A DNA stretch of 60,171 nt from Minisyncoccia bacterium (GCA_038256975.1 JBBSJU010000004.1:1-60171), one strand, 5' to 3'; shown: positions 10,867-40,961, counted from the stretch's first letter. Notes: a model not told the origin generated them from the letters alone. Translations and numbers: made by a program.

Positions 10867-10869
10867 ATT

Positions 10870-11355
10870 ATGGCATCACCATTTTACTTAAGAAATCTTA
10901 TAAAAAATAAAAGCGCAGAGCTTGTTGTTTTTGAGATGTTTCGCGAAGGTGGTAGTTATATTGTCGCTCCTTTTGGGCAAGAAATGATTGTTTCGGAACT
11001 TGCCTCAATTGAAAAAGGAGAAACTATAAAACAAGAAGTATCACGACTTCATGAACGCCCTCAGCTTTCAATAATTGATCAGGCACGAAATACGCACTAT
11101 TTGGTGAAAATAAAATATCGCGAAAACCCTACTCCCCAGATGATTCTTTCTATTGCGCAAGAAATTTCAGCTTCGTGGCCTACTGCGTATCTGTGCTTAG
11201 TTACACCGATAGGATTTTTCTTTGAATCGTGTAGAGATATTCTTGAGAAGGAAGGTGATATTTTGTTAATAGATCCAGAGCTTATTTCTTTAGAAATTCA
11301 GGATAAGTATCTCAGGTTGGCAAATGAAACTATCCGTCAGAAAGAAGCGGAGTAA
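10870..11355 (+). CDS. Hypothetical protein (161 aa)
   Basis: Clean ORF packed tightly between neighbours; no motif recognised. Confidence 0.5.
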   Translation: MASPFYLRNLIKNKSAELVVFEMFREGGSYIVAPFGQEMIVSELASIEKGETIKQEVSRLHERPQLSIIDQARNTHYLVKIKYRENPTPQMILSIAQEISASWPTAYLCLVTPIGFFFESCRDILEKEGDILLIDPELISLEIQDKYLRLANETIRQKEAE

Positions 11356-11371
11356 ATGATATAGTAAAGAT

Positions 11372-12673: not shown

Positions 12674-12682
12674 TCGCTATAT

Positions 12683-14362
12683 ATGTTTGAGGTGGTTCGG
12701 TCGGAAAAAGATGTAGAGAAACTGAAGCGTCACATCATGCGTGACGATGCTCTATATGCTGAGTTTCTCACCATACGAGCCGAGATTGCTCAGTCTGGTT
12801 CGAATATTATTGTGAAGCGGAAATTTGCTCCAGCTGAAGAAGGGGAGAGAAAGATGCCGTCCAATGCCGAGATTTTGTTATGGTACAAAAAGCGAGTGAC
12901 TGAAGGTCTTGAAGAAAAGAGTGAGGTACTCGAACAGGCACTCAAAAAGCTCAAAGTTCGGAGTAATTCTGGGGTTGCTGTTGTCTCATTGCTTACCAAG
13001 CCGTATGCTTGTCCGGGACGGTGTATTTACTGTCCTACGGAGGCAAATATGCCTAAAAGCTATCTCTCAAAAGAGCCTGCCGCTGCGCGTGCACTAGCGA
13101 ATAAATTTGACCCAGATAAGCAAATTACATCTCGGCTCAAGGCGCTCGAAATGAATGGCCATCCGGTTGATAAGGTTGAAATGATTATGATTGGCGGTAC
13201 GTGGAGTTACTATAAACGTGACTATCAGGATTGGTTTACTAAAGAATCTTTTCGCGCTTGCAATAATTTTCATGCTCCACAGGGTGTGGTTTTAAAGGAG
13301 GATGAATTATCGCTTGAGGCGTTACAAAAAATAAATGAGACGGCACCAGTTCGCATCATTGGGCTCTCTATTGAGACCCGTCCAGACTACGTTAATCTTG
13401 AAGAGTTAAATAATCTTCGTCGTCTTGGGGTAACAAAAGTTGAAATTGGTGTGCAGCACCTCGATCAGTATGTTCTTGATTTCAACAGACGCGAAATGAC
13501 GGTTGAGGCGATTGCGGAGTCGGCTGAACTACTACGGAACACCGGACTTAAAATTGTGTATCACATGATGCCGAATCTTCCGAAGAGTAATCCTGAAATG
13601 GATGTTCAAATGTTTAAAGATTTATTTTCAGGTCTTGATCATCACCCTGACATGCTCAAGGTGTATCCGTGTGTCATTTTAAAGAGTACGCTTTTGTATA
13701 AATGGTGGTCACGCAAAGAATTAGAGTATCAACCCTATAACGACGAAGTCCTTACCCAAGTTCTTGCTGACTGTGAACGGGAAGTGCCTGAGTATGTGCG
13801 TATCATTAGAATCATTCGAGATATTCCAGCCACGTATATTGTCGCGAGTAGCAAGAAGTCGAATCTTCGTGAATCAGTTGATGAGTATCAATTACAGCGT
13901 GGAGTTATTCAAAAAGATATTCGTGCACGTGAAATTAGAGACAGGGAAGTATTGCCAGATGATTTTGAACTTACCAATACTTCGTACGAAACAAAAACAG
14001 GGACAGAAATATTTCTTCAATTTCAAAATATACAAGAAAACTCACTTGCTGCTTTCTGCCGTCTCCGTTTACCAAGATGGAATGAAATTAAAGGGTTTGA
14101 GGAGTATGACAATCTAGCTGTATTACCAGGTAAGGCCCTCATTCGGGAGCTTCACACCTATGGGCGTATGGCGAAAATTGGGGCCCAAGGGGAACAGTCG
14201 CAGCACATGGGCTTTGGTCGTAGATTGATAGCTGAGGCAGAAAAAATTGCCCAAGAAAGAGGCTATACAGGAATAGCAATTATTGCGGGGGTAGGAGTGC
14301 GTGAGTACTACAAAAAGTTAGGATATGTATTAGACAGAACATATATGGTTAAGACATTTTAA
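12683..14362 (+). CDS. elp3: Elp3-like radical-SAM/GNAT enzyme (bacterial Elongator protein 3 homologue)
   Basis: CPGRCIYCP (CX4CX2C radical-SAM cluster). IGGTWSYY, VEIGVQHLD. C-terminal GNAT-like HMGFGRRLIAEAEKIAQERGY...AGVGVREYYKKLGY. Confidence 0.8.
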   Translation: MFEVVRSEKDVEKLKRHIMRDDALYAEFLTIRAEIAQSGSNIIVKRKFAPAEEGERKMPSNAEILLWYKKRVTEGLEEKSEVLEQALKKLKVRSNSGVAVVSLLTKPYACPGRCIYCPTEANMPKSYLSKEPAAARALANKFDPDKQITSRLKALEMNGHPVDKVEMIMIGGTWSYYKRDYQDWFTKESFRACNNFHAPQGVVLKEDELSLEALQKINETAPVRIIGLSIETRPDYVNLEELNNLRRLGVTKVEIGVQHLDQYVLDFNRREMTVEAIAESAELLRNTGLKIVYHMMPNLPKSNPEMDVQMFKDLFSGLDHHPDMLKVYPCVILKSTLLYKWWSRKELEYQPYNDEVLTQVLADCEREVPEYVRIIRIIRDIPATYIVASSKKSNLRESVDEYQLQRGVIQKDIRAREIRDREVLPDDFELTNTSYETKTGTEIFLQFQNIQENSLAAFCRLRLPRWNEIKGFEEYDNLAVLPGKALIRELHTYGRMAKIGAQGEQSQHMGFGRRLIAEAEKIAQERGYTGIAIIAGVGVREYYKKLGYVLDRTYMVKTF

Positions 14363-14368
14363 TTGAGT

Positions 14369-15238
14369 ATGAAAATAGGATTTATCGGACAAGGATGGAT
14401 TGGGAAAAACTACGCTGACTCTTTTGAAGAGAGAGGTTACGAAGTTGTGCGCTACGCACTTGAGGAACCCTATGTACACAATGCTCCTCAACTACTTGAA
14501 TGTGAGATTGTATTTGTTGCCGTGCCAACCCCAACAACACCCCAAGGGTTTAGCTATGCTATTGTCGAAGAGAGTCTTGCTCGAGTAGGTGCAGGTGCGA
14601 CCGTCGTTATTAAATCAACTATTCTACCTGGTACCACAGAAGCCCTACACATCAAATATCCACACCTTTTCGTCATGCATAGTCCAGAGTTTTTACGTGA
14701 AGTGCATGCTGCTCACGACGCCCTTCATCCCACACGGAATATTATTGGAATACCAATAAAGGATGATACGTGGTTGAAGAAAGCTGAGGCGGTACTTGCT
14801 GTATTGCCGAGCGCACCGTACAGCAAAATTATGTCTTCTCATGAAGCTGAGCTTGTGAAATACATTGGTAATTGTTTTCTGTACGAAAAAGTCGTTTTCT
14901 TTAATCAAGTGTATGATATGGCGTCTGCGCTGGGTCTTGATTACGAAGTTATTCGGGAGGCTGTTTCGAAAGATGATCGAATTGGCGAGAGTCACACAAA
15001 AGTATTGCATGCAAGTGGACATACGCAAGACATATTTGGCCGTGGAGCAGGTGGGCATTGTTTTGTAAAAGATTTTGAAGCGTTTATACAGTTATATAAA
15101 CAACAATTGCCCAATGACGCACGGGGGATTGAGGTGTTAGAATCATTGCGAAACAAAAATATAGAGTTCCTTGTGAAAAGCAATAAAGATATTGATATAG
15201 TACAACATGTGGTAGGTGACATCTCTCAATTTACTTAA
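14369..15238 (+). CDS. UDP-glucose/GDP-mannose dehydrogenase family protein, short form without the C-terminal UDP-binding domain
   Basis: IGFIGQGWIGKN (NAD fold), VFVAVPTPT, VIKSTILPGTT, SPEFLREVHAAHD, GGHCFVKD. ATG 14369 preferred over the track TTG at 14363. Confidence 0.7.
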   Translation: MKIGFIGQGWIGKNYADSFEERGYEVVRYALEEPYVHNAPQLLECEIVFVAVPTPTTPQGFSYAIVEESLARVGAGATVVIKSTILPGTTEALHIKYPHLFVMHSPEFLREVHAAHDALHPTRNIIGIPIKDDTWLKKAEAVLAVLPSAPYSKIMSSHEAELVKYIGNCFLYEKVVFFNQVYDMASALGLDYEVIREAVSKDDRIGESHTKVLHASGHTQDIFGRGAGGHCFVKDFEAFIQLYKQQLPNDARGIEVLESLRNKNIEFLVKSNKDIDIVQHVVGDISQFT

Positions 15239-15257
15239 TGAACATCCGTAGTTACGT

Positions 15258-16259
15258 ATGATAAAAGATAAAACAATTTTAATTACGGGTGTTGCTGGAT
15301 TTATAGGATTTCATACAGCAAAACATTTTCTAGAAAATGATAAAAATGTTGACATTATCGGTATTGATAATCTGAGTGATTATTATGATACAAAACTTAA
15401 ACATAAACGACTCGAGTTACTTAAACGTTTTAAATCTTTTTCTTTTCATAAAATCGACATAATTAAATATAAAGACATTGCGGCATTAATTGCAAAAAAA
15501 GTTCCAGACATTATTATTCACCTTGCTGCTCAGGCAGGGGTACGTTTTTCGATAGAAAATCCTTGGACGTATGTTGATACAAATATTCGAGGAACACTCA
15601 ATGTTTTTGAGGTTGCTAAAGAATATAAAATTAAACGTGTGTTATATGCATCTTCAAGCTCTGTGTACGGTAAGACAAATAAAAAGAAATTTAAAGAGAC
15701 CGACAGAACAGACACACCACTTTCAGTGTATGCGGCGACAAAGAAAGCCACAGAAATGCTCGCACACTCATATGCAGAACTTTGGGATATGGAAACTGTA
15801 GGACTTCGATTTTTTACTGTGTATGGCCCTTGGGGGCGACCTGATATGGCATATTTTAAATTTACAAAAGCGATTCTTGGTGATGAACAGATTACCCTGT
15901 ACAATAAAGGTGAAATGACGCGTAGTTTCACCTATATTGATGATATTGTGAGCGGAATAGTGAAAGTAGTATATGCAAAAAAGATCCCTCAACAGATCTA
16001 TAATTTCGGCGGAGCAGAATCCATACCACTTAAACACTTCGTGGCTTCTATTGAAAAGGCACTTAATAAAAAAGCTTCTGTGATGTATGGTTCGATGCAG
16101 CCGGGTGATATAAAAGAGACAATCGCAGATTATAGTCGGGCAAAAAAAGATTTCAATTTTTCACCAAAGGTTTCAATAGAAGAGGGGATGAATATATTTG
16201 CAAAATGGTTTGTGGAGAATTACTCGTGGCTGAAAGATCTTAAAAAAGCAAAGCAATAA
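15258..16259 (+). CDS. NAD-dependent sugar-nucleotide epimerase/dehydratase (UDP-glucuronate 4-epimerase-like SDR)
   Basis: ITGVAGFIGFH (GxxGxxG), YASSSSVYG, YAATKKATE (YxxxK). Confidence 0.85.
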   Translation: MIKDKTILITGVAGFIGFHTAKHFLENDKNVDIIGIDNLSDYYDTKLKHKRLELLKRFKSFSFHKIDIIKYKDIAALIAKKVPDIIIHLAAQAGVRFSIENPWTYVDTNIRGTLNVFEVAKEYKIKRVLYASSSSVYGKTNKKKFKETDRTDTPLSVYAATKKATEMLAHSYAELWDMETVGLRFFTVYGPWGRPDMAYFKFTKAILGDEQITLYNKGEMTRSFTYIDDIVSGIVKVVYAKKIPQQIYNFGGAESIPLKHFVASIEKALNKKASVMYGSMQPGDIKETIADYSRAKKDFNFSPKVSIEEGMNIFAKWFVENYSWLKDLKKAKQ

Positions 16260-27192: not shown

Positions 27193-27269
27193 CATTGCCA
27201 GATCGCCTGCCTGCCATGTCTGCGCACGCAGGGCAGGCAGGTCTTATGGTAGTTACATTTGCCAGATCG
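27193..27269 (+). repeat. 13/14-nt direct repeat (CATTGCCAGATCG / CATTTGCCAGATCG) bracketing a GC-rich hairpin; the second copy is the 5' end of tRNA-Gln
   Basis: Copy 1 at 27193-27205 and copy 2 at 27256-27269. Between them CCTGCCTGCC (27206-27215) pairs perfectly with GGCAGGCAGG (27232-27241). Confidence 0.6.
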
Positions 27270-27330
27270 TCTAATGGTAGGACGCATCCCTCTGAAGGAT
27301 GTTATCTTGGTTCGAGTCCAAGCCTGGCAG
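27260..27330 (+). tRNA. tRNA-Gln (anticodon CTG), no encoded CCA
   Basis: Manual cloverleaf. Acceptor TGCCAGA/CCTGGCA (U1:A72, discriminator G73). D arm GTCT-AATGGTA-GGAC. Anticodon arm CATCC-CTCTGAA-GGATG. Variable TTAT. T arm CTTGG-TTCGAGT-CCAAG. Confidence 0.9.
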
Positions 27331-27447
27331 CCGAATTTTAGTTTTTTGTAAGCGAAGCGTTCCATACCAAAAAAGCTGAAATTCGCGTCGCGGATGTCCC
27401 CTAGGGACACAAGACGTGAGTTTGGGTATTATTAGTTGTGATTAAGC

Positions 27448-27471
27448 TTGAGATAGGTTCGGAGTCCGAAG
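27448..27471 (+). repeat. 24-nt element TTGAGATAGGTTCGGAGTCCGAAG (copy 1) containing the 13-nt palindrome TTCGGAnTCCGAA
   Basis: Matches 33263-33286 at 23 of 24 positions. Ends 27 nt before ATG 27499. Confidence 0.8.
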
Positions 27472-27498
27472 AGTATCCAAAAGTTGTATAATCTTGAT

Positions 27499-28335
27499 AT
27501 GAAATCAAAAGTACTGCAAATGCTCGTTCCTGAAGGAAATCCAAACGGAATGAAAATACTTGAATTGGCCGGATGGTCTGGTAAATGTTTTGTAGCACCC
27601 CGTCAGAGTCTAAAAGAGTTAAAAGATCGATCGGAAACCAATCAACCCGGACTTTATCTCCTCTTTGGGATTGATGAGGCGTCTTCGGACGAGCTTGTGT
27701 ATATTGGTGAATCAGAAAATTTCTACAACCGAATTGCTAACCATGATTCAAACAAGGATTTTTGGAATGTTGCAGTTGTGTTTACAGGTGGTTTAAATAG
27801 AGCATTTGTTAAATATTTAGAATATAGAGCGACTACACTGGCACATGAAGCAGGCCGAATGATTGTGCAAAACAAAGTTCAGCCTCAAGAAAACACTTTA
27901 TCTGAATTCGAGAAGGTCACTGTTGAGCAATACTTTGAGAACCTTCAATTTATTTTAGTTGCCATTGGATATGAGGTATTTGATAAGGTAGCTGAGTCAC
28001 TTTCAGATTTAAAACTTTACTATCTTAAAGCCGAAGGATCAGACGCACGAGCACAACTACTTGCAGATGGGAGCTTGAATGTATTAAAAGGTTCTCTCGC
28101 AAGAATCAGAGAAACTGAAGCATTTTGGGGATGGTCACAAGCTGCACGAAAACGATTTCTAGAGGACGGAACGTTTGTTGAAAATGGAGATGGTGTGTCT
28201 TACGTTTATACAAAAGATACGCTTTTTAAAAGCCCTTCCGCTGCCGCGGCAACAACTACGGGAAGACCTATCAACGGATGGACTGCGTGGAAAGATGAGG
28301 TTGGAAACACCCTTGATGAAAATCTGAGAAAATAA
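27499..28335 (+). CDS. GIY-YIG nuclease-domain protein with DUF4357-like C-terminal domain
   Basis: GLYLLFG...LVYIGESENFYNRIANH (GIY-YIG). C-terminal LFKSPSAAAATTTGRPINGWTAWKD is DUF4357-like. TATAAT at 27487-27492 lies 6 nt before the ATG. Confidence 0.7.
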   Translation: MKSKVLQMLVPEGNPNGMKILELAGWSGKCFVAPRQSLKELKDRSETNQPGLYLLFGIDEASSDELVYIGESENFYNRIANHDSNKDFWNVAVVFTGGLNRAFVKYLEYRATTLAHEAGRMIVQNKVQPQENTLSEFEKVTVEQYFENLQFILVAIGYEVFDKVAESLSDLKLYYLKAEGSDARAQLLADGSLNVLKGSLARIRETEAFWGWSQAARKRFLEDGTFVENGDGVSYVYTKDTLFKSPSAAAATTTGRPINGWTAWKDEVGNTLDENLRK

Positions 28336-28337
28336 TC

Positions 28338-28853
28338 ATGGACTCTTTATTTTTTATACCAATACTTAGTGCTGTCCTCATTGTTTGTATTTTTTATATT
28401 CACAGACTTTTACAATTACTTAAAGATAAAAATACCAACGCCTATCTTCCGTATGTGAAGAAAGAATATTTAATGACGAATGCAGAAAGAAACTTTTTCA
28501 AAGTGTTACAAGAAGCAGCAGGGGGTAAGTATTATATAGTTCCACAGGTGCCACTTAAAAACATTGTTCAGGTAAATAAATACGAAAAACTTCAATGGAA
28601 GTATCAAAACCAAATAGATCGAAAGTGTGTTGACTTCGTACTTTTCGATAGAGAATACTTTACGCCTCAGATTGCTATTGAGCTTGATGACATTTCCCAT
28701 GAACTACCTCTAAGAGAAGATAGAGATCGTTTTGTTGATGCGATTATGCAAAAAGTCGGATTACGGATTATGCATATTAAGACTGCGCACACCTATGATT
28801 TGACGGAAGACTTTGCTAAAATTGACTCAGATCATAAAGTTGGTAAAGTGTAG
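28338..28853 (+). CDS. Membrane-anchored DUF2726 (PD-(D/E)xK-like nuclease fold) protein
   Basis: N-terminal TM FFIPILSAVLIVCIFYI. NAERNFFKVLQEA...YIVPQVPL...CVDFVLFD...IAIELDDISHE matches the DUF2726 pattern. Starts 2 nt after the upstream stop. Confidence 0.65.
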   Translation: MDSLFFIPILSAVLIVCIFYIHRLLQLLKDKNTNAYLPYVKKEYLMTNAERNFFKVLQEAAGGKYYIVPQVPLKNIVQVNKYEKLQWKYQNQIDRKCVDFVLFDREYFTPQIAIELDDISHELPLREDRDRFVDAIMQKVGLRIMHIKTAHTYDLTEDFAKIDSDHKVGKV

Positions 28854-28922
28854 GTTAGTATTTCAAAACTTTAAGAACTGGGCTTAAAGGTCATTAATCT
28901 AACCCAAACAAAAAGATGTTTT

Positions 28923-29708
28923 ATGGCTTATACAGGAACTCTACAAAAATTGGCTCAAAATCTTCAAACTACTTACGAGAATACTATTTTTTCTCAATCT
29001 GGAGATATAGGCGATACTCGTGAGAAAGAAGTTATCAAATACTTGAAAAAGGTAATGGCCCACAAATACGGATTTCAATCAGGAGAAATCTTTGACGAAA
29101 GTGACGCAAACTCAGGTCAAGTAGATGTGATTATATATGATAGTCTTTTCTCAACTATTTTTACAGATGGAAGCGAAAAGATATTCGCCCCCGTTGAGTC
29201 TACATACGGCGTTGTCTCAGTAAAGTCTAAAATGGGAATTAAGGAACTCAAGCATGCAATTGAGGGTATTAAAAAATTTAATGAGTTAAAAAGACCGATA
29301 ATAAAAGAAAACACCCTACAAGTTACACCTGATTTTGGAATAACTTTAGGTAATGGGCTTTCTATAACAGGGTCATCAGTACAAAGAAATGTAAATTGTA
29401 TTTTCGCTTTTGAAACTAGTGTTGCGGTTGAAACTCTTATTCAAGAAGTAAAAAACAGTGGTTGTGTAGATCTTTTGGTTGTTCCAGGGAAGCTCTGTAT
29501 TATGGGTAGGAATAGAAAAGAATTTGCATTAAAAGATTTTGGTGGGAAAACTCTGGAATTTGTTGGGATCCGTAATGAAAATTCTGTGGGTCTTTTCATA
29601 CTATTCTTACAAATTTATTTATCACGAAATGTTCTAGTTGCTAGAGATGTAAAAAGTTTAGCTTTAAATTTAATTCATGGAAGTGAAGTTGAATATCTCA
29701 GGAATTAG
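28923..29708 (+). CDS. PD-(D/E)xK-like (DUF6602-like) protein, possible nuclease effector
   Basis: REKEVIKYLKKVM...SGQVDVIIYD...YGVVSVKSK follows the restriction-endonuclease-fold layout, but the catalytic acid before the Lys is not obvious. Confidence 0.45.
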   Translation: MAYTGTLQKLAQNLQTTYENTIFSQSGDIGDTREKEVIKYLKKVMAHKYGFQSGEIFDESDANSGQVDVIIYDSLFSTIFTDGSEKIFAPVESTYGVVSVKSKMGIKELKHAIEGIKKFNELKRPIIKENTLQVTPDFGITLGNGLSITGSSVQRNVNCIFAFETSVAVETLIQEVKNSGCVDLLVVPGKLCIMGRNRKEFALKDFGGKTLEFVGIRNENSVGLFILFLQIYLSRNVLVARDVKSLALNLIHGSEVEYLRN

Positions 29709-29757
29709 AATAAAGATGTTAATATAAAGACAATGATTAGAGATAACTCTTTTTTAA

Positions 29758-30729
29758 ATGAATAGCAAGAACTATTTCGATTACATAGAAGAGAAACTAA
29801 ACGTACTCGCAACCAGGGTCAAATCCAGAGGTAAATTAAACATACTGGATGTACACTTACATTCAGAAAACTTTTATAGAGATTTTTTTAATAAACTCTA
29901 TAAATGGAAACTTGAAAACTTGAATAACAAACAGCAAAATATTGAGTCAATCGATTTGGTTAGTAATTTAGATAAAATCATTATTCAGGTATCTGCAACA
30001 TCTACCAAGCAAAAAATAGAGTCTGCCTTGAGTAAAGAAATAATTAAAAGTTATTCAGGGTATAGATTTAAGTTTATTTCTATAACAGAAGACGCAATTA
30101 AATTAAAGAAATTGACTTATACGAATCCTGCCGGGATAAGTTTTCTTCCGAAGGAAGATATTTATGACGTAGGCTCAATTTTGAGATATACAAATAGCTT
30201 AAACATCAATGATAAAAAAGAAATATATGAATTTTGCAAAAAAGAATTTGCTCCAGATATAGACACCCTTGCATTGGATTCAAACTTATCAAAGATAGTG
30301 AATATTTTATCAAAGGAAAATCTTGATCAAGAATATCGAGATATTCGTCTAGAACCTTTTCAAATTGAAAGGAAAATATTATATAATAATCTAAATGGTA
30401 GTGGGGAAATAATAAAAAAATATAGTATTCACTATAATCAGCTCGAGAAGATATATAATGAATTTGATTTATCTGGTGTGAATAAAAGTAATTCCGTTTT
30501 CACAACTATTTGGATGGAGTATAAGAAAAATATAGATATCAAGAAGGATGATGAGTTATTCTATTTGATAATAAACAATATTAAAGAAATAATTTTGAAA
30601 AGTAACAATTTTGAAAAGATTCCGAGCGATGAACTAGATTTATGTATATTAATCATTGTTGTGGATGCTTTTATCCGGTGTAAAATCTTCAAAAACCCTA
30701 AAGAATACAAATATGTTACTACCGGATAA
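29758..30729 (+). CDS. SMEK-like N-terminal domain protein, presumptive third component of an ABC-3C module
   Basis: HLHSENFYRDFFNKLYKWKLENLNNKQQNIESIDLVS..KIIIQVSATSTKQKIESAL matches my recollection of the SMEK domain pattern. The C-terminal ~220 aa are unassigned. Confidence 0.55.
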   Translation: MNSKNYFDYIEEKLNVLATRVKSRGKLNILDVHLHSENFYRDFFNKLYKWKLENLNNKQQNIESIDLVSNLDKIIIQVSATSTKQKIESALSKEIIKSYSGYRFKFISITEDAIKLKKLTYTNPAGISFLPKEDIYDVGSILRYTNSLNINDKKEIYEFCKKEFAPDIDTLALDSNLSKIVNILSKENLDQEYRDIRLEPFQIERKILYNNLNGSGEIIKKYSIHYNQLEKIYNEFDLSGVNKSNSVFTTIWMEYKKNIDIKKDDELFYLIINNIKEIILKSNNFEKIPSDELDLCILIIVVDAFIRCKIFKNPKEYKYVTTG

Positions 30730-30940
30730 CATCCATCCAGAAAATTCGATATACTACAATGGAGCTTTTGTATTACAGGAGTTACAAAAACAGACTAACC
30801 AAAATTTAATCGATTTATATCAAAATGTAAAACAAAAACAAAAAATGAGTTTTCCAGTTTTTGTTTTATGCTTAGATTGGCTGTTCTTATTGAGTGTTGC
30901 TGAACTAAAAGAAGATGGCAACGTAAAGTTATGTTCTTAA
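30713..30940 (+). CDS. ABC-3C middle component-like small protein (75 aa)
   Basis: MLLPDNIHPENSIYYNGAFVLQELQ...FPVFVLCLDWLFLLSVAEL. ATG 30713 overlaps the upstream gene by 17 nt, and the stop overlaps the ATPase start by 10 nt. Confidence 0.55.
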   Translation: MLLPDNIHPENSIYYNGAFVLQELQKQTNQNLIDLYQNVKQKQKMSFPVFVLCLDWLFLLSVAELKEDGNVKLCS

Positions 30941-32652
30941 AATTATTAAAAATATCATCGGGAGATAACGTAATTCGTCAGATTTCTTTTAAAAAGGGAA
31001 TTAACTTGATTGTTGACGAAACTCCAGAAACTAACAGTGAGACGACCGGAAATAATGTAGGGAAAACAACAGTTTTAAAATTAATAGATTTTTGTCTGGG
31101 GGCTGATCCGAAAGTGGTATATACCGACCCTGAGTCAAAAAGAGATGTGTATGAATTAATTAAAACCTTTTTGCTAAAAAGGGAAATATTGATTACCTTG
31201 GTTTTGAAAAGAAATTTAGAGGAGGAAGATTCTTCAGAGATTTTGATAGAAAGAAATTTTCTCTCACGTAAAAAAAGAATTCAAAGGATTAACGGTGAGA
31301 ACCTAACCGATGAAGAATTTGAACTAAAACTTTTGCAACTAATTATTCCTGAACAGGGAGCTGAAAAACCAACATTCAGACAAATTATATCTCATAACAT
31401 AAGATATAGAGATGAAAATGTAAATAACACTATAAATACATTAAATAAATATACAAGTGACGCGGAGTACGAGGCATTGTATCTGTTTTTATTCGGATGC
31501 GAATTTACTCAAGGAAACTCGAAACAGGATATTTTAGAGAAGATTAATCAGGAGCAAAACTATAAAAATAGGGTGGAAAAAAATCAGACAAGGACGGCTT
31601 ATGAGGCTGCGCTTGCTCTTATTCATTCTGAAATAACTGATTTAAAAAAAAGGAAAAAAAATCTTAATTTAAATGAAAACTTTGAAGCTGATTTAGATAA
31701 ACTCAATAGTATAAAGTATGAAATTAATAAGACAAGCTCAGAAATAAGCAAAATTTCAATCAAGAAGAGCTTAATCATTGAAGCTGAGCAAGAATTAAGT
31801 GCAAGGAAATCAGATATTGATCTTCAGCAATTGAGGCTAATCTATCAACAGGCAACAAGTCAAATTGTTAATGTGCAAAAAACTTTTGATGATTTGGTTG
31901 ATTATCACAATAGAATGATTATTGAAAAAGTTCAATTTATCAAAAAAGATTTACCGGAATTAGAAAAAGAGATAAAAAACAAGGAGTCTTATTTGAAAGT
32001 TCAATTGAATGAAGAAAAAGACATAACTCTTAAAATTTCTAAAAGCGATTCCTTTGAGGAACTTGAGGAATTGATTGTAAAGTTAAATGAAAGTTTTAGA
32101 AAAAAAGGAGAATATGAAGGTGTTATCAAGGGGTTGTTAGAGGTTGAGGAAAATATTGCAGAATATGGTAAACAAATTAAAGAGATTGAAAATCAGTTAT
32201 TCTCAACTGATTTTGAAAAAACAGTAAAAAAACAACTTAACAAATTTAATATACATTTTGCTCTTATCTCGAACCAGTTGTATGGAGAGAAATACGTCGT
32301 TAAGCACGACATAGTCTTCAATAGGAATAACCAGCGGATATATAAATTCAGTTCTTTTAATGCAAATCTAAGTTCAGGTAAGAAACAGGGAGAAATATCA
32401 TGTTTTGATATTGCTTATACAATGTTTGCAGATGAAGAAAAGATTTCATGCTTACATTTTTTACTGAATGATAAAAAAGAGTTAATGCATGATAATCAAT
32501 TGGTAAAGATTGCTGAATTTGTAAATAAAAATAATATTCAATTTGTTGCATCAATACTAAAAGATAAACTTCCTGAAGAATTAAATAAACAAGAATACTT
32601 TGCGGTTAAACTTTCCCAAACGGATAAGCTATTTAGAATAGAGAATCAGTAA
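30931..32652 (+). CDS. Coiled-coil ABC/SMC-like ATPase (DUF2326 / ABC-3C ATPase type)
   Basis: Walker A GNNVGKT (31048-31068). ~200-aa E/K/L-rich coiled-coil insert. C-terminal LSSGKKQ (signature-like) and CLHFLLND (Walker B-like). Confidence 0.7.
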   Translation: MFLKLLKISSGDNVIRQISFKKGINLIVDETPETNSETTGNNVGKTTVLKLIDFCLGADPKVVYTDPESKRDVYELIKTFLLKREILITLVLKRNLEEEDSSEILIERNFLSRKKRIQRINGENLTDEEFELKLLQLIIPEQGAEKPTFRQIISHNIRYRDENVNNTINTLNKYTSDAEYEALYLFLFGCEFTQGNSKQDILEKINQEQNYKNRVEKNQTRTAYEAALALIHSEITDLKKRKKNLNLNENFEADLDKLNSIKYEINKTSSEISKISIKKSLIIEAEQELSARKSDIDLQQLRLIYQQATSQIVNVQKTFDDLVDYHNRMIIEKVQFIKKDLPELEKEIKNKESYLKVQLNEEKDITLKISKSDSFEELEELIVKLNESFRKKGEYEGVIKGLLEVEENIAEYGKQIKEIENQLFSTDFEKTVKKQLNKFNIHFALISNQLYGEKYVVKHDIVFNRNNQRIYKFSSFNANLSSGKKQGEISCFDIAYTMFADEEKISCLHFLLNDKKELMHDNQLVKIAEFVNKNNIQFVASILKDKLPEELNKQEYFAVKLSQTDKLFRIENQ

Positions 32653-32684
32653 TTTTTAACTGAGCTCATGGTTTCTGTCTGCAT

Positions 32685-32705
32685 AGTTCCAACGTCGTCC
32701 CATGC
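32685..32705 (+). repeat. 21-nt post-stop junction motif, copy a
   Basis: AGTTCCAACGTCGTCCCATGC, starting 32 nt after the ATPase stop. Consensus AGTTYCRAYNTCGTCCCAGAC. Confidence 0.7.
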
Positions 32706-32790
32706 TCTCAGCACTTGATTTTCACATCATTTATCAAAGTAAAACTTATACCTGTCAGGTAATCTCGAATTTCTGTATAATTATCCTAAT

Positions 32791-33219
32791 ATGTTGCCAG
32801 ACGAAAACTCAAAAAAATTTGTTGCGGTATTAAACAAGAAAGTCGAAACCGGAAAGTTAATGAACGCTCTGGGTCACATGAGTGCAGGACTTTCGGGTGG
32901 CTTCGGAAAGGGAGAAGAAATGAATTTTTTGGAATATCTTGATAAAGATGGAGGGATTCATCCAAAGATATCTCATTTTCCTTTTATAATATTAAAAGCA
33001 GAAAATTCCAATCAGATCAGAAAAATTAGAAATGAGGCTATGCAGAGAAATATACTATTCACTGATTTTACAAGCACGATGACTGTCGGGACCTCCGCAG
33101 ATCAATTAGAGAGAACAAAGAGTACGCTTGAAGCTGAATTGGAATATTGGGGGATATGCATGTTTGGAAATGCAGCAGAGCTTAAGGAATTTACAGGAAA
33201 GTTATCACTGTTCAATTAA
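32791..33219 (+). CDS. DUF2000-like protein (PTH2-like fold family)
   Basis: KFVAVLNKKVETGKLMNALGHMSAGL...PFIILKA pattern at ~140 aa. TATAAT at 32776-32781. Confidence 0.5.
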   Translation: MLPDENSKKFVAVLNKKVETGKLMNALGHMSAGLSGGFGKGEEMNFLEYLDKDGGIHPKISHFPFIILKAENSNQIRKIRNEAMQRNILFTDFTSTMTVGTSADQLERTKSTLEAELEYWGICMFGNAAELKEFTGKLSLFN

Positions 33220-33230
33220 TATAATAGTTT

Positions 33231-33251
33231 GGTTCGAATAACGTCCCAGAC
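33231..33251 (+). repeat. 21-nt post-stop junction motif, copy b
   Basis: GGTTCGAATAACGTCCCAGAC, starting 11 nt after the DUF2000 stop. Confidence 0.7.
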
Positions 33252-33262
33252 GGCCAGCCAGT

Positions 33263-33286
33263 TTGAGATAGGTTCGGATTCCGAAG
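33263..33286 (+). repeat. 24-nt element TTGAGATAGGTTCGGATTCCGAAG (copy 2)
   Basis: Matches 27448-27471 at 23 of 24 positions. Ends 19 nt before ATG 33306. Its half-site GATTCCGAAG recurs at 35322-35331. Confidence 0.8.
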
Positions 33287-33305
33287 TGTAATATAATTCA
33301 TAAAC

Positions 33306-35339
33306 ATGGATCCGCTAGATTTGGAAAGGAAAGATTTTGGAAAAGAATTTGAAGAAGAAGTTAAGTTTTTTCTTGAGGAAAAACTCAGATTTTCTGATGT
33401 GAGAGGAGGTCAAGATTTTCACATTGCTCCTCCAGGACAAAAAAATCAAATAGATGCTTGTGGTCGTTACAACGATATTCTTTTTGTGTTTGAGTGTAAA
33501 GCTTCAGGAAGAAGAACTAAGAAAAATTTACGTCAAGATATTTTAGCAACAAAAGAAAGGGCAAGAATGGTACTACGATCATATAAATACATCCCCGAAT
33601 ATGCTAATTGTAATTATGTAAAATTTGTTTTTATAACTAAAAAAATTGAAATACCTGATACTGAAAAAGATTTACTTAATAAGGATACTGAGCCACATTT
33701 TTGGTATGCAGATGAAAATATGTTGGAGTATTATAGTGATCTTCATGAAAAGGTTGGAGAGTATGCAACGTATAATTTTTTAGCAGATTTTGGAATTAGA
33801 CCTTCAGAAGATGAGGTGCTCAAGGTGGCTGCGGTTAAAACTAAAATTGGTAACTATGATACATATAGTTTTTATGCTCCACCTAAGCAATTATTAAAAT
33901 TTTCTTATGTTGCAAGACGCAGATCTTTAAACGAGAATTTTTATCAAAGGATGTTAGATAAAAATAGAATAAAAAACATTCAAAATTTTATAGACGCAGG
34001 TGGAATATTCCCGACAAATGTCATAATTTCTTTAAAACATGGAGACAAGGAATTTGTAAAGAATCATGATCTGACTGGTTCTGAGGTTGGTGTACTAACT
34101 ATTAAAAATAGTTACAGTGCTTGTTGGATCATTGATGGTCAACATAGACTATACTCCCATGCTAAATCAAAATCAGAAAATCTTATTCCTTGTATTGCTT
34201 TTGACAATATTGGTATTGAGGATGAAAGACGTTTTTTCCTTGAAATAAACAGGGAGCAGAAACCAATTCAACCAGATTTAATTTGGGACCTTGAGGGATT
34301 ATCAAGTCCTGATTCATTTAAGGGAATCATTTCAAATGTTGTTCGAACTCTTAATAATCGAGAACCTTTTCTCGATAAAGTTTATATTCCAGTAAAAGGA
34401 TCACGCACAAACAAACTTGTTAATATGGCAGCTTTCTGTAACGGTATTGTTAATTCACAAATCACTAAACAAAACCCTCCTAGTGTTATAGGAATGCAAA
34501 ACCCCTTATTTACAGAGGTCACAAGAACAATAACTAACCGAACAGCTTCTTCTTTAGAGAGATTTTTCCTTAGTTTGAAAGAGGTTTTAAATGAGGATCA
34601 AATAGATTTTGTGTTTGGGAATGCTGGTATCCCTATAATGTTGTATATTTTTGAGCCAATTTTGGCTCATATTGGTCGAATACCTGCTTTTGGTGATTTA
34701 AGCCCGTATACAAAATTAATAGGAGAATTTTTTAACCAAAATTACTCCACATATGATGATCTTCGAAAACTAAGATCAGAAACTAATAGTGAAGGTGCTC
34801 GTAAGTCAATTGCTAGACAAATAGGCTTGTATATTCGCAAGGGAGTAAGAGATCGTCTGTTTTGGCCAAAAATGGAACAAGATGAATTTGTGTCAGAAAT
34901 TATTTCGATGGAAAGAGGTATCGCCTCCGTTATTGCTGAAAAGTTAAGCGAAGTTACAGTTGGTTGGGAAAAACAAAGAGTACCACAACCAATATATGCT
35001 GTAGCAAAGAAAAGGATGGACCAAGACGGGACTGTCTTCCATGAAAACTTTTCTCTTGGAGACGAAATACAGATTATTACAAGGGATGACAACTGGAAAG
35101 AAGTTTTTCAAGATTTTTTTATAACAAAGACAGGATTTAAGGATCAAAGCGAATTAAAGTTAGCATTCAGATATTTAGCTGACGTTCGTAATCCTACTTC
35201 ACACGGTAAATCAGTTATTACAGATAAAGATGTTTTAGTACAAGCTGAAATTTATCTAGAAAAATTTAGAAAAATGATACCTATTATAGATGATATTGAC
35301 CAAGAAGTAGGTCTAAATAATGATTCCGAAGAGCATTAA
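33306..35339 (+). CDS. Three-domain fusion: PD-(D/E)xK REase-like N-domain, DGQHR (DndB-like ParB/Srx fold) domain, and C-terminal HEPN (Swt1-like)
   Basis: IDACG...LFVFECKAS (D50, E63, K65; 33453-33500). WIIDGQHRLYSH with DGQHR encoded at 34134-34148. DVRNPTSHG, with the Rx4H HEPN motif at 35187-35204. Confidence 0.75.
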   Translation: MDPLDLERKDFGKEFEEEVKFFLEEKLRFSDVRGGQDFHIAPPGQKNQIDACGRYNDILFVFECKASGRRTKKNLRQDILATKERARMVLRSYKYIPEYANCNYVKFVFITKKIEIPDTEKDLLNKDTEPHFWYADENMLEYYSDLHEKVGEYATYNFLADFGIRPSEDEVLKVAAVKTKIGNYDTYSFYAPPKQLLKFSYVARRRSLNENFYQRMLDKNRIKNIQNFIDAGGIFPTNVIISLKHGDKEFVKNHDLTGSEVGVLTIKNSYSACWIIDGQHRLYSHAKSKSENLIPCIAFDNIGIEDERRFFLEINREQKPIQPDLIWDLEGLSSPDSFKGIISNVVRTLNNREPFLDKVYIPVKGSRTNKLVNMAAFCNGIVNSQITKQNPPSVIGMQNPLFTEVTRTITNRTASSLERFFLSLKEVLNEDQIDFVFGNAGIPIMLYIFEPILAHIGRIPAFGDLSPYTKLIGEFFNQNYSTYDDLRKLRSETNSEGARKSIARQIGLYIRKGVRDRLFWPKMEQDEFVSEIISMERGIASVIAEKLSEVTVGWEKQRVPQPIYAVAKKRMDQDGTVFHENFSLGDEIQIITRDDNWKEVFQDFFITKTGFKDQSELKLAFRYLADVRNPTSHGKSVITDKDVLVQAEIYLEKFRKMIPIIDDIDQEVGLNNDSEEH

Positions 35340-35467
35340 AATGCAGAATAAAAAGAACCAGAAAATCCTTGTGGGGTAAGGTATGGAAATGTCCGAATCC
35401 GATGAGGTCAGCAATTTGAGATTCGTACTAGACCAGGGCATGGCGCGAGCTGGTATACTGATCGTAT

Positions 35468-36097: not shown

Positions 36098-36117
36098 GTT
36101 CCAACTTCGCTCCAAAC
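36097..36117 (+). repeat. 21-nt post-stop junction motif, copy c
   Basis: AGTTCCAACTTCGCTCCAAAC; its first base is the last base of the HAD stop codon. Confidence 0.7.
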
Positions 36118-36167
36118 AACTAGCACGGTGACTAAATAAAACTTAGTTTTTCTTGTATTATGTCTAC

Positions 36168-36737
36168 ATGAATGAGCCAGCAGACCTAGTTTACATTGAT
36201 GACTATGATTTATTAGGTAGTAATTTTTATTGGCATAAGTATGAAGCTAAAGGATTAACGAAAGAAGATATACTCTCTGTTGGATTAACGAGCGATCGGG
36301 TACAAATACATAAAGATATCTTACAACCGCTACTTACAGTGAATGCTGAGTTTCAAAGGAAAGGATACCGGTTATACATTAAAGAGGGATATCGTTCGAA
36401 AGCTCTTTACGAAATGATTTACAAACGGCGTGTTACAAAGTTTGGTAAGGAAGAAACCGATCGTCTTTTAAATATGGAAGGGATGCCTCACGCGGAAGGA
36501 AAATCAGTGGATGTGGCCTTATGGAGTCTACGAGAGAATAAGGAAATTTATCTGCGCCAAGGAGAAGACGGGGTAGATGCGCTTTTTGTTGATTTCTATA
36601 AAGGAAAAGAGGATGAGCAAAGCAAAAGATATCAAGAGCTACAAGAATGGATTATTAATATAATGCAAGAACAAGGATTTCGACTGGGTACTAAACGGGA
36701 ATACTTTCATTTCGATTATAAGCCGAATGAGGTTTGA
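36168..36737 (+). CDS. Peptidase M15 family, VanX-like D-Ala-D-Ala dipeptidase (paralogue 1)
   Basis: YIKEGYRSK, MPHAEGKSVDV (H and D zinc ligands) and EYFHFDY (distal His). TATTAT at 36156-36161 lies 6 nt before ATG 36168. Confidence 0.7.
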   Translation: MNEPADLVYIDDYDLLGSNFYWHKYEAKGLTKEDILSVGLTSDRVQIHKDILQPLLTVNAEFQRKGYRLYIKEGYRSKALYEMIYKRRVTKFGKEETDRLLNMEGMPHAEGKSVDVALWSLRENKEIYLRQGEDGVDALFVDFYKGKEDEQSKRYQELQEWIINIMQEQGFRLGTKREYFHFDYKPNEV

Positions 36738-39552: not shown

Positions 39553-39607
39553 TTTTTACAAAATGAAAACACGCCTACGAAAAGCATGTTTTCAGTAAGC
39601 GTGTGTA
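39553..39607 (-). repeat. 55-nt exact repeat (copy 1), likely the intrinsic terminator/3' UTR of the minus-strand small membrane-protein gene
   Basis: tttttacaaaatgaaaacacgcctacgaaaagcatgttttcagtaagcgtgtgta is identical to 40675-40729. On the minus strand ACACGC...GCGTGT is followed by TTTTCATTTTGTAAAAA. Confidence 0.75.
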
Positions 39608-39612
39608 TTAGT

Positions 39613-39840
39613 TCAGTAGCGGAGTACGGTCGGGACGTTGTTCTGTCGCTGAGTGCGGAGCTTCTTGATGTAGGCACAGAACTCGCACCCAAGCGCAACG
39701 TAGCCGGCGATGGTGGCGGAGATGATCATTCCACGAGCGATGTCCTTTTCGCCTTGGATGGCGAAGTAAAGGCCAATCGCAAATGTGACCACGAAAATGA
39801 CGAAACAAGCGACCGTGCTTCTGTCAAAGCCGTTATTCAT
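39613..39840 (-). CDS. Small two-TM membrane protein with basic C-terminal tail (paralogue 1)
   Basis: MNNGFDRSTVACFVIFVVTFAIGLYFAI..GMIISATIAGYVALGCEFCAYIKKLRTQRQ. SD AAGGAG lies 8 nt before the ATG. GC-richer than flanks. Confidence 0.65.
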   Translation of the reverse strand: MNNGFDRSTVACFVIFVVTFAIGLYFAIQGEKDIARGMIISATIAGYVALGCEFCAYIKKLRTQRQNNVPTVLRY

Positions 39841-39997: not shown

Positions 39998-40061
39998 TTG
40001 TAGCTATTAACGGCTAGTCTAGTGGTCAGATAAAATTCATTTTTTCTTGTATCATGTCTAT

Positions 40062-40640
40062 ATGAATGAGCCAACAGATCTAGTTTATATCGATGACTAT
40101 AATTTATTAGGTAGTAATTTTTATTGGCATAAATATGAAACTCACGGACTCACGAAAGAAGATATTTTAGGTGCTGGTTTGGTAGACGATAGAGTTCAGG
40201 TGAGCAAACAGATTATTGAGCCTCTTATTGCGGCAGACAATGAATTACAGAAAAAAGGATGGCGGCTTTATATTAAAGAAGGGTATCGTTCAAAAGATCT
40301 TTACAAGGTAGTCTATGAGAAAAGAATTGCTAAATATGGAAAAGAAGTCACAGATACTATATTAAACATAGATACGATGCCACATTCTGAAGGTTTGTCT
40401 GTCGATATTTCAATTTGGGACACTAAGACAGATAAAGAGATATATATGCGTAAAGGGAGTGATGGTGTGCCAGCTTTCTTTACCCATTTCTATCGTGATA
40501 AAAGTGATGAGGAATCAAAAAGTTATCAAGAACTTCAAGATTATATAGCCAAATTAATGATGAAATATGGTTTCCGTTTTGCGTCGAAAAAGGAATACTT
40601 TCATTTTGATTATCGCCCTAGCTTACCTCCCAATTATTAG
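40062..40640 (+). CDS. Peptidase M15 family, VanX-like D-Ala-D-Ala dipeptidase (paralogue 2)
   Basis: About 60% aa identity by eye to 36168..36737. YIKEGYRSK, MPHSEGLSVDI, EYFHFDY. The promoter and first ~100 nt are nearly identical to paralogue 1. Confidence 0.7.
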   Translation: MNEPTDLVYIDDYNLLGSNFYWHKYETHGLTKEDILGAGLVDDRVQVSKQIIEPLIAADNELQKKGWRLYIKEGYRSKDLYKVVYEKRIAKYGKEVTDTILNIDTMPHSEGLSVDISIWDTKTDKEIYMRKGSDGVPAFFTHFYRDKSDEESKSYQELQDYIAKLMMKYGFRFASKKEYFHFDYRPSLPPNY

Positions 40641-40674: not shown

Positions 40675-40729
40675 TTTTTACAAAATGAAAACACGCCTAC
40701 GAAAAGCATGTTTTCAGTAAGCGTGTGTA
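40675..40729 (-). repeat. 55-nt exact repeat (copy 2), terminator/3' UTR of the second small membrane-protein gene
   Basis: Identical to 39553-39607. Confidence 0.75.
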
Positions 40730-40736
40730 GATGTGT

Positions 40737-40961
40737 TCAACGGAGAACAATCCACCTGTTCCGTCGCCGAATGCGTAGTCGTCTGAGGTAGGCCCTCACT
40801 TCGCACCAGATCCCGATGAAGCCGATAACCGCGGCAGCACCAATTGCTTTTCGGGCAATCTCGCCTTCACCTCCGATGGCGAACAGAATCCCGGCTACGA
40901 GCATGATTACGGAGATAATAAAAGAAATCAACGCACCTCTGGTATATCCGGTACCGGTCAT
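40737..40961 (-). CDS. Small two-TM membrane protein with Arg-rich C-terminal tail (paralogue 2)
   Basis: MTGTGYTRGALISFIISVIMLVAGILFAI..AIGAAAVIGFIGIWCEVRAYLRRLRIRRRNR. SD GAGGGG lies 6 nt before the ATG. Confidence 0.65.
   Translation of the reverse strand: MTGTGYTRGALISFIISVIMLVAGILFAIGGEGEIARKAIGAAAVIGFIGIWCEVRAYLRRLRIRRRNRWIVLR

Follow-up and report, generated by a model that had tools for sequence, protein, structure and literature searches.

A conserved three-domain DGQHR protein from a Minisyncoccia bacterium as a candidate self-contained, horizontally mobile restriction-like nuclease

The DNA considered here is a stretch of 60,171 nucleotides (nt) from a Minisyncoccia bacterium (GCA_038256975.1 JBBSJU010000004.1:1-60171), referred to below as the window. 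One of its genes encodes a protein of 677 amino acids (aa) that combines an N-terminal PD-(D/E)xK domain of the restriction endonuclease (REase) fold, a central DGQHR domain, an all-helical linker and a probable HEPN domain at the C-terminus (Table 1). We hold, with somewhat more confidence than doubt, that this protein is a self-contained, restriction-like nuclease directed against foreign DNA and that it belongs to a conserved, horizontally mobile family. In such an enzyme a DNase and a HEPN RNase, the latter carried beyond the linker, would be governed by a DGQHR domain gated by nucleoside triphosphates (NTPs).

The gene is a complete and uninterrupted open reading frame (ORF) that begins with ATG. 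Codon arithmetic reproduces exactly the single 677-aa ORF and all the motif coordinates given in an earlier annotation made by a model from the DNA alone (the original prediction). The three-domain layout proposed there also recurs outside the window. Conservation was counted among 97 aligned full-length relatives, and gene contexts were counted in 82 species-level loci of archaeal or bacterial origin; the residue pattern E16/D50/E63/C64, QR, DGQHR, FxxxN and R628/H633 is found in nearly all of these loci, including those that encode forms of ~760 aa. Conservation across the 82 loci indicates that the three-domain protein is an old, conserved design and not a local fusion. An AlphaFold2 model of the whole chain, built on 97 sequences, has a mean pLDDT of 88.8 and a pTM of 0.58.

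On sequence grounds the assignment of the central domain is certain. NCBIfam model TIGR03187 (DGQHR domain) matches residues 176-411 (E 1.9e-34) with 119.7 bits, where 58.85 are required, and the protein carries YQR at 213-215, DGQHR at 277-281 and FxxxN at 311-315. A QR pair, a nearly invariant pentapeptide and FxxxN are the defining motifs of the DGQHR/GmrS-type ParB/Srx domain (PMC4619093). In the family examined here YQR213-215, DGQHR277-281, F311 and N315 are invariant (97/97 relatives), and the motifs are present in 82/82 loci. When the whole chain was compared with known structures by Foldseek, the ParB-like protein PadC (6ryk) was matched with a probability of 0.96-0.99, at an E-value of 0.35 and a TMq of 0.13. 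By analogy with data on DndB-like proteins, GmrSD and BrxU, the domain may bind and hydrolyse NTPs. DndB binds ATP, and a DndB-like protein binds both ATP and GTP (bioRxiv 10.1101/2025.10.10.680097); defence by GmrSD-like enzymes depends on their DGQQR motif, and BrxU has to dimerise in order to function (bioRxiv 10.1101/2024.01.29.577857).

In the original prediction the central domain was called DndB-like and placed in the frame of phosphorothioate modification. The DGQHR part of that claim stands and the DndB frame falls. The Pfam DndB model (PF14072) does match above its cut-off (36.9 versus 29.1), with an alignment that covers model positions 3-156 of 338 only, and some homologues are labelled ‘DndB’ in a few sources. 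The more specific models failed: the DndB equivalog (TIGR03233) scored 17.5 versus 328 bits, the DpdB equivalog (NF041060) 54.5 versus 300 bits over residues 172-329 only, and DGQHR_dnd_1 52.1 versus 450. The reported lack of dndACDE and ssp partners was confirmed and extended, as no dnd, ssp or dpd gene is present in the window, no TGT-like or DUF328 gene lies among the neighbours of the window gene, and no dnd, ssp or dpd gene lies beside the nine close homologues that were looked up. The same families are absent from the 25 commonest among the 150 nearest neighbours of 42 loci, a count that rare cases could escape. Hence, a confinement of the homologues to dnd or ssp operons, which would have made the protein a stray modification component, is not seen in the contexts examined; their recurrent partners are DNA methyltransferases, as described below.

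The N-terminal domain is well supported as a PD-(D/E)xK domain by its motif, its predicted topology and weak profile and fold matches. Candidate catalytic residues are E16, D50, E63 and K65, accompanied by a conserved C64. The predicted secondary structure (helix 11-26, strands 30-33, 51-55 and 58-72, helix 76-95 and strand 104-115, with pLDDT >90) yields a core topology alpha-beta-beta-beta-alpha-beta, as in the PD-(D/E)xK superfamily. E16 is located on helix 11-26, D50 starts strand 2 (51-55), and E63 and K65 lie on strand 3 (58-72); in other words, the superfamily signature is present, with its E in the first helix, its D where the second strand starts and (D/E/Q)xK in the third. The D50...E63-C-K65 motif of the original prediction is thus borne out by both motif and predicted topology.

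Profile and fold matches to this domain are weak. Pfam NERD scores 18.4 in the window protein, below the cut-off of 22.1, and exactly 22.1 in one relative (P0112). A Pfam scan was made on 31 relatives, plus 10 picked by hand that partly overlap with the 31; the 31 gave weak matches to NERD (9), Hjc (4), Mrr_cat (3) and Card1_endonuc (1). The top whole-chain Foldseek matches in the Protein Data Bank (PDB) are REase-fold proteins, namely 1y88 (AF1548), Cdn1, McrC, MspJI and Hjc, with E-values of 0.12-1; the first four have probabilities of 0.94-1.0 and E-values of 0.12-0.3. A sequence search of the PDB with the full-length profile returned chance-level matches only (NDUFA5 and ribosomal protein S17, E ~0.1), as did a search with the C-terminal profile.

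Conservation within the domain is uneven. E16 is kept in 91/97 relatives, D50 in 93 and C64 in 94, and the latter (window 33495-33497), in the middle of the E-x-K motif, varies less than E63 and K65 on either side of it. Two cysteines of other regions, C273 and C378, are also nearly invariant in the family alignment. A possible role of the conserved cysteines is metal or redox sensing.

The C-terminal domain is the weakest of the three assignments, and we consider it a probable HEPN domain on the strength of its motif, its position and a number of sub-threshold matches. An Rx4-6H motif with a polar residue after the arginine is present as R628-N-P-T-S-H633. Among the 97 relatives, R628 is kept in 94, H633 in 96 and E536 in 96, while residue 629 is N in 65 and D in 10. 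In the AlphaFold2 model R628 ends helix 614-628, which is the penultimate long helix, H633 lies in the connector, and the last helix spans residues 641-657; E536 is in the first long helix and does not have the typical Ex3[KR] form. In a survey of HEPN domains the Rx4-6H motif has the same place: it closes the third core helix and extends into the loop that leads to the last one. The survey also notes that the R is followed by a polar residue (N/D/H) and that an acidic residue is conserved upstream (PMC3710099). We take N629 and E536 as their counterparts. In HEPN RNases the R and the H of the motif are catalytic (PMC3710099).

No Pfam HEPN family matches the window protein. Sub-threshold matches are found among the 31 relatives to HEPN_Swt1 (5 proteins, 14.6-20.1 versus 27.5), HEPN_RiboL-PSP (2), Abi_2 (2; 18.0 versus 25.6) and HEPN_MAE_28990 (1), and those whose position was inspected all fall in the last 100-130 residues. 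A separate model of residues 512-677 is all-helical (pLDDT 87.5), and the leading, non-significant Foldseek matches of this domain-only model were all to HEPN proteins, among them AF_0298 (2hsb), the toxin that forms a toxin-antitoxin pair with MntA (6m6w, 6m6u, 5yep), Csm6' (8pe3) and 4nqf. The same model had no match in a viral structure library, and a search for other architectures with the C-terminal profile in a large protein database retrieved three fragments of the same family only. The Rx4H RNase motif that had been read from the sequence stands as to motif and position, and the HEPN assignment is probable. The preceding linker, helical with high pLDDT, gave no significant match to any family or to any PDB sequence.

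Relatives of the protein form a moderately large, widespread family. A search of 5.8 billion proteins found 263 at E ≤0.001, and most of the 120 relatives listed are 650-710 aa long and align to 92-100% of the query. Among 1.84 billion representatives at 50% identity, an exhaustive search gave 1631 relatives at E 1e-3, 896 at 1e-10 and 287 at 1e-30; in a collection with one genome per species (GTDB), at least 395 places encode a relative. The holders include archaea (Micrarchaeota, Thermoplasmata, Methanomassiliicoccales, Brockarchaeota) and bacteria (Dehalococcoidia, Acidobacteriota and, from candidate phyla, Parcubacteria, Microgenomates and Saccharibacteria), and cultured organisms are found among the Alphaproteobacteria (Bosea, Caulobacter, Mesorhizobium) and in Paenibacillus. 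A phage origin was considered and rejected: phage genome records show partial DGQHR-domain matches only.

The gene behaves as a unit. Its closest homologue, with 97% protein identity, is on a contig (L001) of which 22 kb were fetched; outside the shared segment (Table 1) the DNA of this contig is unrelated to that of the window, bar two short, weak matches elsewhere. The shared segment is made of the gene, ~60 nt upstream and 78 nt downstream. Another contig, L089, shares positions 33246-35413 at 80% identity, hence with nearly the same boundaries, and its flanks are unrelated. Because only the 2.2-kb gene segment is common to another contig, the gene can be viewed as self-contained, in agreement with the stand-alone unit envisaged in the original prediction, and comparison of the contigs indicates that it most likely moves between genomes as a one-gene cassette of 2.2 kb.

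In L001 the left edge of the shared segment falls within the 3' end of a tRNA-Gln(TTG) gene (9882-9953), and in the window the cassette adjoins a degenerate tRNA-Gln remnant located 5.9 kb downstream of an intact tRNA-Gln(CTG) gene (27260-27332). These sequence relationships suggest a tRNA-Gln-linked integration hot spot that would have been filled in at least two steps. No integrase was found in the island. A 31-nt element with a palindrome lies just upstream of the gene and has a second copy in the window (2 matches versus 0 expected from shuffles), and the two copies flank a 5.8-kb block of other defence genes. In L001 the element is found at 9957-9987, directly after tRNA-Gln. It could be either an operator or promoter element shared by the two sites or an att-like junction. 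A direct repeat that might have marked an att site (33231-33269 versus 35391-35422) was marginal, as 12/300 shuffles gave an equal score, and no att claim is made.

The cassette may also carry its own promoter. The original prediction had proposed a leaderless one, and a TATAAT hexamer is indeed found 6-8 nt before the ATG in L001, L089 and another contig (L090) as well as in the window. A two-hexamer sigma-70 scan called no promoter at this site. The hexamer and the lack of a Shine-Dalgarno sequence fit a leaderless or near-leaderless transcript, which we regard as plausible. At the other end, the conserved 3' tail has no terminator-like site and folds no better than shuffled sequences (z = -0.99). 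Two ORFs of 116 and 67 aa on the minus strand within the gene were treated as incidental.

Neighbourhood conservation, which the original prediction had put forward as a check, was examined by calling ORFs in the 82 loci and clustering those of all neighbours; methyltransferases were counted with a crude ORF caller and a motif screen, with a Pfam check on representatives, and locus L019 holds a putative case. No neighbour is conserved family-wide, and two recurrent partners are detected. The first is a DNA methyltransferase, found at ≤~125 nt on the same strand in 22/82 loci. In 15 of them it is a D12-class N6-adenine methyltransferase (Pfam E 4e-49) at a distance of ≤40 nt, and DNA methyltransferases are the commonest families among the 150 nearest neighbours of 42 loci. 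That four methyltransferase families were recruited independently is a hallmark of a restriction component, and the two-gene pairs look like an undescribed type of restriction-modification (R-M) module, as judged from gene content and arrangement. Such pairs exist in the cultured strains Bosea sp. BH3, Paenibacillus peoriae KCTC 3763 and Caulobacter sp. SLTY. The close relatives of the window gene are solitary and have no methyltransferase partner.

The second partner, detected in nine loci, is made of a radical-SAM-like protein (~540 aa) and a GHKL (HATPase_c_3) ATPase (~515 aa). In plasmid pNL1 of Novosphingobium aromaticivorans this set comes with three further proteins: another DGQHR protein, which is short, another GHKL ATPase and one that is PIN-like. 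A tentative interpretation is that the radical-SAM/GHKL set may be an uncharacterised module for DNA modification or defence.

Other homologues are also located in the company of restriction or mobility genes. Among those with 57-65% identity, one adjoins a BsaWI-type R-M system and a rolling-circle Rep gene, and others adjoin an integrase or transposases. In one locus (L085, 6918-11141) a 58% homologue is embedded, on the opposite strand, in a Type II R-M unit, between a fragmented N6_N4 methylase and an NmeDI-like nuclease with its helix-turn-helix (HTH) controller, and toxin-antitoxin pairs are found on the flanks of the unit. A relative with 31% identity is directly upstream of a DpnI gene. 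A subclade carries N-terminal extensions, either a HARE-HTH domain above threshold (37.6 versus 25.9) or an EVE-like one. EVE domains are linked to the binding of modified DNA. The HARE-HTH domain has likewise been linked to modified-DNA binding (PMC10853773). Together with the DpnI neighbour, these extensions are hints that relatives may read modified DNA.

Table 1. Features of the window (positions counted from its first letter) and loci of relatives with recurrent partners
Feature	Position or loci	Strand	Basis or remark
Complete ORF of the three-domain protein, 677 aa	33306-35339	+	ATG start, uninterrupted, stop codon included
PD-(D/E)xK (NERD/Mrr/Hjc-like) nuclease domain, ~residues 8-165	33327-33800	+	Topology, motif, weak matches
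D50	33453-33455	+	Codon position
K65	33498-33500	+	Codon position; span from D50 to E63-C-K65 is 33453-33500
Central DGQHR (ParB/Srx-type) domain, ~residues 170-411	33813-34538	+	TIGR03187, motifs
DGQHR, residues 277-281	34134-34148	+	Codon positions
All-helical linker, ~residues 412-520, no family assignment	34539-34865	+	AlphaFold2 helices 406-514, high pLDDT
Probable HEPN (Swt1-like) domain, ~residues 521-660	34866-35285	+	Key residues E536, R628-N-P-T-S-H633
R628 to H633	35187-35204	+	Codon positions
Mobile single-gene segment	33243-35417	+	Only part of the window found in contig L001 (blastn, 2176 nt with 94.2% nt identity)
Degenerate tRNA-Gln 3' half (T-arm and acceptor strand)	33229-33260	+	Local alignments to tRNA-Gln of the window and L001, no significance estimate
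31-nt element with palindrome TTCGGA-N-TCCGAA	33260-33290	+	Just upstream of the DGQHR gene
Second copy of the 31-nt element	27445-27475		Upstream of the PDC-S14 gene; 28/31 identical, direct repeat
TATAAT, -10-like hexamer	33292-33297	+	8 nt before ATG, without Shine-Dalgarno
Conserved 3' untranslated tail	35340-35417	+	Kept in L001 and L089
Row of separate defence candidates preceding the DGQHR gene	27484-33219
Pairs with D12 methyltransferase	L031, L038, L041, L046, L047, L051, L059, L061, L062, L067, L068, L070, L078, L079, L081
Pairs with MT-A70 methyltransferase	L043, L054, L076
Pairs with N6_N4 methyltransferase	L010, L026
Pair with D12-like methyltransferase	L048
Pair with C5 methyltransferase	L008
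Radical-SAM/GHKL loci	L082 (N. aromaticivorans pNL1, 10110-16199), L035, L040, L045, L049, L050, L064, L065, L066

From domain content, gene contexts and known relatives we infer a defence function that would involve NTP gating, dimerisation, two nuclease activities and the sensing of DNA modification. As a switch dependent on NTP, the DGQHR domain would engage DNA and read in it a mark of non-self, most probably the state of its modification. In its ‘on’ state the domain would join two protomers, and the N-terminal nuclease would then cut the DNA. The two HEPN domains brought together in this manner would make a composite RNase site, a second effector that might serve as an abortive-infection back-up. 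In the methyltransferase-paired relatives (about a quarter of the loci), methylation would presumably protect self DNA, following the logic of restriction-modification. For the solitary form we envisage a Type IV-like or otherwise self-sparing trigger, with attack on foreign modification or on another foreign feature. We prefer this Type IV-like mode for the solitary clade to dependence on an unlinked methyltransferase, because a nuclease from which methylation shields the host could scarcely persist after a transfer that leaves the methylase behind.

Several observations weigh against this interpretation, or against parts of it. Position 63 is E in 75/97 relatives and Q in 17/97, and position 65 is K in 48/97 and T in 33/97. 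As the lysine is replaced in about half of the relatives, DNA cleavage by the REase domain is perhaps not universal, and in some members of the family, as the alignment indicates, the domain may serve for binding instead. All Pfam HEPN matches are below gathering scores, the best being HEPN_RiboL-PSP in one relative (P0048; 27.5 versus 28.4), and the HEPN matches obtained by Foldseek with the domain-only model are non-significant (E 0.55-6, TM 0.26-0.36). The whole-chain pTM of 0.58 makes the packing of the domains uncertain. Furthermore, the relatives linked to methyltransferases speak for a protective role of methylation, contrary to a Type IV mode, and the EVE-like extension is sub-threshold (20.3 versus 23). 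The membership of the window gene in a defence island is circumstantial. Finally, PADLOC-DB v2 has no model for the window protein beyond a partial DpdB match. This lack of a model also means that defence annotation of that kind currently overlooks the family.

The findings admit other explanations. The best placed, which we nevertheless consider unlikely, is that the window protein is a restriction endonuclease that cuts unmethylated DNA and has its cognate methyltransferase elsewhere in the genome. The 22 pairs with methyltransferases of four families are in its favour, and so are the DNA methyltransferases found within 0.3-6 kb of several closer homologues. In two of these loci (L002 and L004), however, an unrelated ORF lies between the nearby C5 methylase and the homologue, and this ORF is probably the methylase's own nuclease. 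None of the neighbours of the window gene belongs to a DNA methyltransferase family, and no ORF of ≥150 aa with a [DNS]PP[YFW] motif is present in the 60-kb window, in a screen whose motif does not cover C5 enzymes. In addition, the gene moved as a segment of 2.2 kb without a methylase, a transfer that would be lethal in a naive genome if methylation were what protects the host.

A rather more doubtful explanation is that the protein is mainly an abortive-infection RNase toxin, with HEPN as sole effector and the REase-like and DGQHR domains as DNA-binding sensors. Sensor-gated HEPN effectors are common (PMC3710099), and R628/H633 and the DGQHR motifs are far better conserved than E63 and K65. 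The high conservation of E16, D50 and C64 (91-94/97) and the complete E-D-E-K set of the window protein argue, however, for a nuclease that cuts DNA, as does the pairing with methyltransferases, which suits a DNA-cutting enzyme and not an RNase. Besides, this explanation would rest the whole activity on the weakest of the three domain assignments.

Much less probable is a selfish gene, in which the nuclease would promote the spread or the retention of its own cassette at tRNA-Gln-linked sites, as in mobility or addiction. In its favour is what is seen at the DNA level: a one-gene cassette with conserved ends, found in unrelated contexts and beside tRNA-Gln in two genomes, with a tRNA 3'-half remnant at its left edge and one homologue inside another R-M unit. 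The cassette has, however, no recombinase, its flanking direct repeat is marginal, and the architecture of the protein matches that of defence effectors; defence and selfish roles are not exclusive in any case. Lastly, a stray DndB/DpdB-type regulator of a phosphorothioate or 7-deazaguanine pathway is largely refuted, since the Pfam DndB match above cut-off covers only the first half of the model, the partial DpdB and DGQHR_dnd_1 matches and the ‘DndB’ labels are outweighed by equivalog scores that fail widely, the contexts examined lack dnd, ssp and dpd genes, and two nuclease-type domains are fused to the DGQHR domain. The preferred reading, a restriction-like nuclease, thus keeps much of the stand-alone sensor-effector of the original prediction: the self-contained unit and the three domains are retained, the DndB frame is abandoned, and the HEPN effector is probable.

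The surroundings of the gene in the window are those of a tract with low GC content (28-37% from tRNA-Gln to ~39 kb, compared with 39-47% in most other 1-kb bins). Its order is PDC-S14, DUF2726, a DUF6602/NucC-like nuclease, ABC-3C, DUF2000, the DGQHR gene, and HAD and VanY-type genes. The PDC-S14 candidate defence protein is composed of GIY-YIG and DUF4357 domains (PADLOC E 2e-80), and its translation probably begins in fact at the ATG of position 27499, which a TATAAT precedes by 6 nt. The ABC-three-component system is complete, with SMEK_N+CTD10, MC6 and a DUF2326 ABC ATPase, and the 94-aa MC6 ORF overlaps both adjoining ORFs.

Mur-ligase, glycosyltransferase and VanY-type genes are also present in the window, as befits bacterial DNA. 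A perfect 55-nt direct repeat (39553-39607 and 40675-40729) adjoins paralogous ORFs for small membrane proteins on the minus strand (39613-39840 and 40737-40961). Two VanY-type peptidase genes (36153-36737 and 40047-40640) are paralogues as well, with 73% nt identity over 296 nt (36115-36410 versus 40009-40304). The repeat and the paralogues suggest that a small block of genes was duplicated locally.

When the protein is compared with known systems, its closest functional likeness is found among the Type IV restriction enzymes of DUF262-DUF1524 type that carry a ParB/Srx-fold NTPase domain and a nuclease on one polypeptide, namely GmrSD, BrxU, SspE, HEC-05 and HEC-06. It shares with the GmrSD/BrxU-type enzymes the motifs DGQ(Q/H)R, QR and FxxxN (PMC4619093), and those enzymes too are often solitary in defence islands or embedded in other systems. 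The differences are also clear: GmrSD/BrxU-type enzymes have DUF262/DGQQR and a C-terminal HNH (DUF1524), whereas the window protein has DGQHR, an N-terminal PD-(D/E)xK domain and an extra C-terminal HEPN-type domain, and many of its relatives are paired with methyltransferases. Weak matches to GmrSD_N were found in 2/31 relatives, and none to HNH or DUF1524. By analogy, the protein may work most like GmrSD, BrxU and SspE without being a member of their group, as it lacks DUF262/DGQQR and HNH.

DndB and DpdB share the DGQHR domain family with the window protein, and DndB itself, according to Makarova et al., carries a HEPN domain after its ParB-like domain (PMC3632139). In contrast to both, the window protein starts with a REase domain, has ~110 aa more of helical sequence and lacks dnd/dpd neighbours; besides, DndB has been described as a transcriptional regulator and not as an effector. 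The NERD defence nucleases such as HEC-02B, which have been linked to phage defence and tested for it, have in common with the window protein a PD-(D/E)xK domain and its (D/E/Q)xK signature. HEC-02B works, however, with a separate ABC ATPase, whereas in the window protein the nuclease is fused to a ParB-type domain and its NERD score is sub-threshold.

Pieces of the architecture have been known for some time. Fusions of COG1479/DGQHR to PD-(D/E)xK and to HEPN were catalogued computationally in 2013 (Makarova et al., PMC3632139), and a fusion of ParB with a Swt1-like HEPN, exemplified by Saro_3948, was reported in the same year (Anantharaman et al. 2013, PMC3710099). These studies list pairwise fusions in tables; the three-domain arrangement, the pairing with methyltransferases and the cassette behaviour have no description in the searchable literature. 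The 769-aa DGQHR protein of N. aromaticivorans pNL1, possibly Saro_3948 itself, matches DndB and HEPN_Swt1, and its alignment spans 94% of the window protein (E 1e-30, 23% identity); unlike the window copy, it has the radical-SAM-like and GHKL-ATPase neighbours. In the searchable literature we found no experimental study of the three-domain architecture, nor does it appear in more recent surveys of Dnd, BREX and ParB-fold proteins, in line with the earlier statement that no characterised system has this arrangement.

A bolder reading, possible and held by us with clearly less confidence than the restriction-like nuclease itself, is that the family is a distinct one-protein class of immunity. 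In this class a ParB-type switch would read DNA modification and control both a DNase as first-line effector and a HEPN RNase as suicidal back-up. The same chassis would have been joined to at least four kinds of methyltransferase and to the radical-SAM/GHKL module, and its solitary form would spread among bacteria and archaea as a promoter-bearing cassette of 2.2 kb. Fusions of ParB/Srx NTPases to nucleases, such as GmrSD, BrxU and SspE, are an established class of defence proteins whose mechanism is unsettled. If our interpretation is true, the family described here would enlarge that class by a version whose single chain bears another kind of nuclease and, as second effector, one directed at RNA. 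How a single NTP switch coordinates restriction and abortive infection would then become a testable question, for which the methyltransferase-paired relatives of cultured strains offer simple experimental entry points.

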